64,000 bases of DNA from the NCBI RefSeq assembly GCF_054482595.1, contig NZ_CM137008.1; one strand, written 5' to 3'. Positions 29,815 to 31,985 of the stretch are shown piece after piece (positions within the stretch are counted from its first letter, which is position 1; the number at the start of each line of letters is the position of its first letter). The translations under genes and the position numbers were made by a program. The notes below the pieces were generated by a model. It saw only the letters and a list, made by a program, of their open reading frames with translations, did not search any database and was not told where the DNA came from.

Positions 29815-30993
29815 ATGACTGCTGTAAGCCAAACCGAAACACGATCTTCTGCCAATTTTTCGCTCTTCCGCATCGCTTTTGCGGTTTTTCTCACCTACAT
29901 GACCGTAGGGTTGCCGTTGCCGGTTATCCCGCTGTTTGTTCATCATGAACTGGGCTATGGCAATACCATGGTCGGCATTGCCGTCGGGATTCAGTTTCTG
30001 GCTACGGTGCTGACGCGTGGCTATGCCGGGCGACTGGCCGATCAATATGGCGCAAAACGTTCGGCGCTTCAGGGGATGTTAGCTTGTGGTCTGGCGGGCG
30101 GCGCGTTGCTGCTGGCGGCGATTTTGCCTGTCTCCGCACCGTTCAAATTTGCCCTGTTGGTCATCGGGCGTTTGATTCTTGGCTTTGGTGAAAGCCAGTT
30201 ACTGACAGGCGCTCTGACCTGGGGGTTAGGCATCGTAGGGCCAAAACACTCTGGCAAAGTGATGTCATGGAATGGAATGGCGATTTACGGTGCCCTCGCT
30301 GTTGGTGCTCCGCTTGGCCTGTTGATTCATAGCCATTACGGTTTTGCCGCACTGGCGATCACCACAATGGTATTACCCTTACTGGCGTGGGCCTGTAACG
30401 GCACAGTGCGCAAAGTACCGGCCCTGGCGGGAGAACGTCCATCGCTGTGGAGCGTTGTTGGGCTTATCTGGAAACCAGGGTTAGGTCTGGCACTACAAGG
30501 CGTTGGTTTTGCGGTTATCGGGACTTTCGTTTCGCTCTACTTTGCCAGCAAAGGATGGGCGATGGCGGGCTTTACTCTTACCGCGTTTGGCGGCGCATTT
30601 GTCGTGATGCGCGTCATGTTTGGCTGGATGCCGGACCGTTTTGGCGGCGTGAAAGTGGCGATCGTCTCTCTGCTTGTAGAAACGGTGGGCTTGTTGCTGC
30701 TCTGGCAAGCCCCTGGTGCATGGGTCGCATTAGCGGGCGCGGCGTTAACCGGAGCCGGATGTTCGCTTATCTTTCCTGCGCTGGGCGTGGAGGTGGTTAA
30801 ACGTGTCCCCTCACAAGTTCGCGGCACCGCACTGGGCGGTTACGCCGCGTTTCAGGATATCGCCCTCGGCGTCTCCGGGCCGCTGGCGGGAATGCTGGCG
30901 ACCACGTTTGGTTACTCTTCGGTATTTCTTGCCGGGGCGATCTCTGCGGTGCTGGGAATTATTGTCACGATACTGTCATTTCGTCGGGGTTAA
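29815..30993 (+). CDS. yfcJ: MFS-family transporter YfcJ
   Basis: 392-aa 12-helix-type membrane ORF. Confidence 0.85.
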
Positions 30994-31985
30994 CGAACCA
31001 GCCAGACCAGCATCAGGATAATCGCGATTAACAGTATCCACAGCGCGGGACGCGTTGCCATATTTTGCAACGTGTCCATCATCGGTGGAAAAGGATTAAG
31101 CAGCGGTTGCATATCACGCGGATCAATCCCTTTAACCCGCCGTTGATAAAGCTGATTAAGAATATCCTCGGCCTGGGCAGAAGAAAGCGATGATTGCGCA
31201 GAAAGGCCATATTTTTGCTGGATATATGCCGATAACGCCGCCAGTTCACTGGCATCTAAAGGTTGTTTTAGCGTCATCTGTAGTGATTCCAGCGTCGGCG
31301 TATTTTGCTGGCTTAGCGTCTGACGCGCCTGCAGCCAGGTCACCAGATGGTTAAACAGTTTCGCTGGAATTAACTCACCATCTTTCACCCCGGAAAGTTC
31401 CAGCATCGATTGCCAGATCTGTTTGCTGGGTTCCCCCGTTGCCGCCGCAAGTTTGGTCACCAGCTGTTTGAGCGCATTGTGCTCCGCCGGTAATAGAGGA
31501 CGATCGGTCGCCTCGCGCTGCTGCGGTTGCGGAATAACCATCTTCCCTTCCTGCAACAGGGTGAGAATGGTTTTTAATTGCTCCGGTGAGAGCTGATTCA
31601 GCGGCGTCTGACCAAAGTTATGACGGATATAATCCGTGACCGCCTGACGATTATTCCCCAGACGTAAATACTCCCCTAATTGAGCTAAAAGCTGGCGGGC
31701 AGAATGGCTTTTTTGCGCGGCCAGCAGACGTTGCGCCAGATTATGCTCAGCGGCAGGGAAGTGACGCGAAAGCAGCGGTGAATCTCCCGACAGACCAATA
31801 TCGTGCCTGATACCCGCCCACAGTTCTGCTCTTTGCTGTTGCGTCAGTGAGGTCACTTTCGTCATTAAGCTTTCCAGCGAAGTACGTTGCTGACTGGATA
31901 AAGGCTGATTGCCCGCGCCAGACGGCAGGTTATCTCCCTGACCTGGTGGTTGCCCAGGAGGAGGGCCGGAAATAGGTTGTATCAT
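30990..31985 (-). CDS. flk: Flagellar regulator Flk (C-terminal membrane anchor)
   Basis: 331-aa ORF with hydrophobic C-terminus ([18 protein letters not shown]); convergent with yfcJ, stop codons overlap by 4 bp. Confidence 0.8.

Follow-up and report, generated by a model that had tools for sequence, protein, structure and literature searches.

Convergent yfcJ and flk of Escherichia coli end on a shared TTAA: an ordinary four-nucleotide overlap, most likely a tolerated by-product of spacer loss

The convergent genes yfcJ and flk of Escherichia coli overlap tail to tail by 4 nt, with both stop codons lying within a single TTAA, in the 64,000-nt stretch of DNA analyzed here (the window; NCBI RefSeq assembly GCF_054482595.1, contig NZ_CM137008.1). 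The pair is an ordinary member of a long-described class of 4-nt tail-to-tail overlaps and, as a class, is not beyond chance; both this class and the overlap of the flk and yfcJ transcripts are already known from the literature. The new element concerns the origin of the junction: on the simplest reading of the sequence comparison, the E. coli overlap is derived and goes back to a single deletion of a terminator-bearing spacer in an ancestor shared by Escherichia and at least Citrobacter sedlakii. Most likely, the overlap is simply tolerated as a by-product and does not serve as a regulatory device. We consider it probable that it arose as a neutral consequence of spacer loss and that transcripts of each gene end within the partner by means of Rho, a weak embedded hairpin, and/or polymerase collisions. 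In window coordinates, the junction comprises the following features.

yfcJ coding sequence, 29815-30993, plus strand: 392 amino acids, MFS transporter, with the stop TAA at 30991-30993; from the open reading frame (ORF) list and the RefSeq annotation (b2322 in MG1655).
flk coding sequence, 30990-31985, minus strand: 331 amino acids, flagella biosynthesis regulator Flk; from the ORF list and the annotation.
TTAA containing both stops, 30990-30993, both strands: a 4-nt convergent overlap of coding sequences; from the sequence and the ORFs.

Positions 30985-30998 read cggggTTAAcgaac, the flk stop TAA is the reverse complement of 30990-30992, and the bases common to both stop codons are 30991-30992. 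The two genes lie on opposite strands with overlapping 3′ ends and with both stops in TTAA, as in other 4-nt convergent overlaps. The first-pass annotation had placed the end of yfcJ at 30993 and that of flk at 30990, with the TAA stops overlapping in TTAA, which is exact according to the sequence, the ORFs, and RefSeq; its remark that no intergenic room is left for terminators is true by construction. The Flk C-terminus contains a hydrophobic stretch, and the Pfam domain PF27202 (Flk_N) is present in Flk homologues. The local gene order, mnmC, fabB, yfcJ (plus), flk (minus), pdxB, usg, and truA, is that of b2324-b2318 in MG1655. At the start of the window, positions 1-3250 carry sucrose-6-phosphate hydrolase (cscA), an “aminoimidazole riboside kinase,” an oligosaccharide MFS transporter, and a 50-residue DUF4942 remnant, adjoining a tRNA-Arg gene (3176-3250, minus strand), and this segment looks like a csc sucrose-utilization island inserted at the tRNA gene.

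Identical gene ends are annotated by RefSeq/PGAP in a strain that is 100% identical over 29700-32100 (L001; yfcJ at 3116-4294 and flk at 4291-5286), and the identical 4-nt overlap is annotated in K-12 MG1655 (flk at 2437950-2438945 and yfcJ at 2438942-2440120), and in the four other E. coli records examined, which include that strain and the most divergent two of the listed matches. Of 5,426 complete E. coli genomes, 5,425 contain the region 29700-32100, several of them at 100% identity, and 5,423 match a 201-nt probe across the junction with at least 95% identity. The different stop positions that the first-pass annotation had envisaged as a possible outcome of resequencing did not emerge: the junction sequence is matched in these 5,423 genomes, and the annotation agrees in the records examined.

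Overlaps of this kind are commonplace. The lengths of convergent overlaps jump at exactly 4 nt, where the tetramers are CTAA, TTAA, CTAG, and TTAG; the E. coli count of convergent overlaps is 58, and over 58 species 672 of 1,890 convergent overlaps (36%; from Tables 2 and 3) are shorter than 5 nt (Lillo and Krakauer, 2007; PMC2174442). Within the window, yfcJ/flk is one of eight convergent pairs and the sole convergent overlap, the remaining seven pairs being spaced by 32-392 nt. Same-strand overlaps of the usual kind also occur in the window: stop/start overlaps of 4 nt at 18622-18625, 19104-19107, and 44974-44977 (yfc fimbrial genes and hisQ/hisM), overlaps of 1 nt at 10583, 24331, 25140, and 34299 (fadI/fadJ, mepA/yfcA, yfcA/epmC, and usg/truA), and an 11-nt overlap of folC and dedD at 38251-38261.

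The origin of the junction is indicated by the orthologous loci of other lineages, in which the 3′ ends of the two genes are arranged as follows (Flk identity is relative to E. coli).

Escherichia albertii, four further Escherichia lineages, and C. sedlakii (L003-L009), Flk identity 61-98%: 4-nt overlap.
Jejubacter calystegiae (L016), Flk identity 52%: 26-nt spacer TGAAAAGCGCCCTTCGGGGCGCCTTTCAGTTA, a textbook bidirectional terminator.
“Citrobacter sp. JGM124” (L011), Flk identity 46%: 32-nt spacer with CCCCCGC/GCGGGGG.
L021, Flk identity 46%: 44-nt spacer with a long (11-14 bp) hairpin.
Enterobacter quasimori (L028, 3509-3599): 91-nt flk/yfcJ spacer that folds as a single long, imperfect palindrome (either strand, -50 to -54 kcal/mol).
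L017 (3468-3499), Flk identity 48%: 32-nt overlap, with YfcJ running 13 residues past its usual ...AFRK end.
L019, Flk identity 40%: no yfcJ; flk faces fabB tail to tail, the two stops being 9 nt apart.
Pseudescherichia vulneris and Buttiauxella (L029 and L030): other genes directly past flk.

A bidirectional intrinsic terminator is thus found at the orthologous Jejubacter junction, where the spacer, written out as AAAAGCGCCCTTCGGGGCGCCTTTCAG, forms the hairpin AAAAGCGCCC-TTCG-GGGCGCCTTTC of -20 to -23 kcal/mol. By eye, the 91-nt palindrome of E. quasimori is REP-like. In a neighbor-joining tree of the adjacent PdxB protein, every lineage with the 4-nt overlap falls into a single clade, and lineages with spacers surround this clade. 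The C-terminal lengths of YfcJ and Flk differ by at most 1-2 residues between spacer and overlap lineages; therefore, the change was a loss of the spacer without any long extension of either protein. Salmonella flk is absent among the matches listed (a Flk genome scan with 11 loci, and protein searches whose best 120 matches were filled by Escherichia, Citrobacter, Enterobacter, and Buttiauxella), so the point at which the overlap arose is placed no more finely than between Enterobacter and the clade of Escherichia and C. sedlakii. Near-identical fragments of E. coli flk (90-100% identity) were also recovered from the assemblies of Alcaligenaceae bacterium SAGV5 and a Corynebacterium sp. MAG (L010 and L012), and these most likely represent contamination of those assemblies with Escherichia DNA.

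Within the overlap clade, GTTAA is invariant in an alignment of nine sequences (E. coli, other Escherichia species, and C. sedlakii), and the last codons vary, Flk ending in R, S, or V and YfcJ in G or C. Two protein-neutral changes are possible in the tetramer, T30990C and A30993G, each of which gives a TAG stop in one gene and is synonymous in the other. The invariance of TTAA despite these neutral changes could hint at constraint, a hint weakened because few independent lineages have been sampled and because E. coli uses TAG less than either other stop codon. The evolutionary fluidity of the junction across the wider set of lineages speaks against a conserved role in regulation.

Taken in sequence, the proposed course of events would be as follows. 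A short flk-yfcJ spacer may have been lost in an ancestor shared by Escherichia and at least some Citrobacter, the counterpart of this spacer in other Enterobacteriaceae being a bidirectional hairpin terminator or a long palindrome, and both frames would have settled on the shared TTAA as the closest position that leaves each of them a stop. Each mRNA would consequently end inside the opposite gene, so the 3′ ends would overlap, as already reported by RNA-seq (PMC12288877). The flk transcript would run untranslated into C-rich RNA antisense to yfcJ and might be stopped there diffusely by Rho, and the yfcJ transcript would meet a weak hairpin and T-run approximately 50-75 nt into flk or else be ended by Rho or by head-on polymerase collision. 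On this account, the yfcJ/flk overlap is without machinery of its own.

On the yfcJ strand, two hairpins within flk may bear on termination.

Terminator-like site in the 3′ end of flk, 31041-31067, plus strand (yfcJ sense): 7-bp stem CAGCGCG-GGA-CGCGTTG, -8.0 kcal/mol, followed by CCATATTTTG; predicted from a consensus scan and folding energy.
11-bp inverted repeat GGACGCGTTGC/GCAACGTGTCC, 31048-31077, plus strand: 8-nt loop holding the T-run; competes with the 7-bp hairpin.

It is possible, if unlikely, that these elements constitute an efficient embedded intrinsic terminator, in which case the hairpin or hairpins at 31041-31077 would stop yfcJ transcription, antisense coverage of flk would be confined to approximately 50-85 nt, and the overlap would have no consequence. 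The scan did find a terminator-like stem and T-run; folding of nascent RNA cut off at 31066, with the polymerase on the T-run, predicts this stem (31041-31057, the site starting approximately 50 nt into flk); and the 121-nt plus-strand segment 30960-31080 folds better than its shuffles (z = -2.8). Such an arrangement would have precedent, as a terminator inside the partner was predicted for 23 of 116 convergently overlapping E. coli genes (approximately 20%), one partner having a predicted rho-independent terminator in 19 of the 58 overlaps and both partners in 2 (PMC2174442). However, the stem has just -8 kcal/mol, and the candidate is weak because the T-run begins 5 nt past the stem, with CCATA between them. 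The 11-bp hairpin is stronger (-18.1 kcal/mol on the plus strand, with a G.U pair, and -15.2 kcal/mol on the minus strand, with an A.C mismatch) and is the preferred predicted fold once 31067-31077 has been transcribed, but the T-run then ends up in its loop and none follows it. Moreover, shuffled sequence yields approximately four such scan sites per 3 kb, and both hairpins sit in Flk codons including those for ...TLQNMATR..., the choice of which could explain the palindrome. In E. albertii, other Escherichia species, and C. sedlakii, all of which have the TTAA overlap, the corresponding positions pair less well or not at all; a conserved hairpin at 31048-31077 was rejected on this ground. 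Because they are not maintained in relatives with the same overlap, the hairpins are treated as a weak, lineage-specific terminator candidate and no designed terminator. An internal antisense promoter was likewise rejected, as one promoter-like site (31055-31082) was found where 2.2 are expected from shuffles.

On the flk strand and around the stops, the following elements were recorded.

RNA following the flk stop (antisense to the 3′ half of yfcJ), 30390-30989, minus strand: C exceeds G in 19 of 21 overlapping 78-nt windows; from base composition.
8-bp perfect inverted repeat GATACTGT / ACAGTATC, 30969-31038: brackets the junction with its arms 54 nt apart and is part of the plus-strand minimum-energy fold.

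The C/G ratio past the flk stop is mostly 1.1-2.2 over approximately 600 nt (78-nt windows), a composition that would suit Rho once ribosomes have left, Rho being able to halt untranslated RNA shortly past a stop codon. A scan for a hairpin and T-run on the minus strand found no site in 30390-30989, and folding of the 171 nt that follow the flk stop gave an unremarkable score (z = -1.6). The 8-bp inverted repeat around the junction is probably fortuitous. A structured element across the stops was rejected, since the sole hairpin spanning them has 5-6 bp (-2.8 and -4.4 kcal/mol), and E. coli, having no spacer, has no bidirectional intrinsic terminator (a G+C-rich stem-loop with an A-run and a T-run) between the stops. 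Head-on polymerase collision is a documented route of termination at convergent E. coli genes, and collisions at defined positions need a stem-loop (Wang et al., 2022; bioRxiv 10.1101/2022.10.23.513370); therefore, with no stem-loop at the E. coli junction, diffuse ends would be expected. A search of Rfam gave no RNA family at or near the junction. Farther along the window, the dedD-cvpA interval (38976-39228, plus strand) contains three tandem matches to Rfam naRNA4 (RF02564) of 73-80 bits with a spacing of approximately 91 nt, which we take to be REP/BIME-type repeats.

Published mapping of 3′ ends provides a partial view of this region. The supplements of Adams et al. (2021; PMC7815308) list neither a curated Term-seq 3′ end nor a Rho region labeled flk or antisense to yfcJ, and the TERMITe supplements contain nothing for flk or yfcJ. 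Since no 3′-end mapping of the yfcJ/flk junction was found in the literature and none is labeled by Adams et al., the roles of Rho, the hairpin, and collisions are inferred here. Supplementary file 2 of PMC7815308 does list a bicyclomycin-sensitive termination region, “internal yfcJ,” on the MG1655 minus strand, with its top Rho score at 2440043: without bicyclomycin, 236 reads lie upstream and 15 downstream (800-nt window inside the gene), and with bicyclomycin, 266 lie upstream and 98 downstream (score 5.8, p = 4e-12). MG1655 position 2440043 corresponds to 29892 of the window. A hairpin, CCGCA-TCGCTTT-TGCGG then TTTTTCTC (29868-29892, plus strand, -6.4 kcal/mol), is located in the first 26 codons of yfcJ, and the Rho position is 8 nt past its stem. 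Transcription that enters yfcJ from fabB or from the yfcJ leader seems mostly to stop near 29892 in LB. The gene looks weakly transcribed in that medium, and polymerase collisions would therefore be rare there.

The first-pass annotation had further proposed read-through antisense transcription between the two genes, and published RNA-seq backs this: flk-yfcJ is among the 165 convergent excludons of MG1655 obtained with ExcludonFinder (Sanmartin et al., 2025; PMC12288877, Table 1), which are gene pairs whose transcription units overlap in 50% or more of 58 MG1655 RNA-seq samples. Nothing found in the literature showed the transcriptional interference that the first-pass annotation also named. 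An improbable alternative to neutral spacer loss is that the pair is a functional excludon under selection, in which the mRNA 3′ ends pair and are cut by RNase III, and/or the polymerases interfere, rendering Flk and YfcJ mutually exclusive. Its place in the published list, the higher synteny of excludon pairs compared with other neighbors (PMC12288877), and the invariance of TTAA over Escherichia and C. sedlakii are in its favor. The comparison of lineages is against it: the arrangement is restricted to a narrow clade, a terminator or palindrome separates the genes in close relatives, flk is followed directly by other genes in Pseudescherichia and Buttiauxella, and flk of L019 converges on fabB. 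Furthermore, yfcJ is apparently weakly transcribed in LB, and the literature yielded no functional link between Flk and YfcJ, YfcJ being tied there to arabinose efflux and bo3 oxidase activity, and no dsRNA, RNase III, or reciprocal-expression data for the pair.

An even less probable proposal is that loss of the terminator was itself selected and established an obligatory antisense coupling, yfcJ transcription lowering Flk and vice versa, with the hairpin specific to E. coli setting the length of the duplex. If the overlap does couple Flk and YfcJ, E. coli would have one more validated excludon, possibly tying membrane transport or respiration to the control of flagellar assembly; nothing found points to such coupling. 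Finally, an annotation or sequencing artefact, with one gene truly ending elsewhere, has virtually no standing, because a stop position requires no gene-calling judgement, the same sequence and annotation recur across thousands of independent assemblies, the C-termini of both YfcJ and Flk align with orthologues from other genera, and no evidence supporting an artefact was found.

Neutral spacer loss remains the favored reading, and under it the overall importance of the overlap is little. The junction offers a clean textbook example of how convergent genes come to share TTAA, with the bidirectional terminator of relatives lost without obvious harm. Three known systems provide the frame for comparison. 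Convergent genes with a bidirectional terminator, including those with collision-assisted termination (Wang et al., 2022, bioRxiv 10.1101/2022.10.23.513370, and Ju et al., 2019, cited there), have the same gene geometry; E. coli yfcJ/flk differs from them in having no intergenic stem-loop, whereas the orthologous junctions of Jejubacter, L011, and L021 have one. Like convergent excludons (PMC12288877), among which it is itself listed, flk-yfcJ consists of neighboring convergent genes with overlapping transcription units, but the listed excludons have a mean intergenic distance of 95 nt, whereas flk-yfcJ has no spacing and is listed for its transcript overlap, the functional consequence that defines excludons being mutually exclusive expression or RNase III processing. 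From the class of 4-nt convergent overlaps (PMC2174442; Fukuda et al., 2003, cited there), yfcJ/flk differs in nothing essential, its stops lying in one of the named tetramers, TTAA. A change at the 3′ end is the origin proposed for that class, and the route by which a stop is lost and the ORF extended is exhibited by L017, in which the extension of YfcJ passes through the codons of the hydrophobic tail of Flk; unlike stop-codon mutation with extension, the comparison for yfcJ/flk points to the loss of a whole terminator-bearing spacer.
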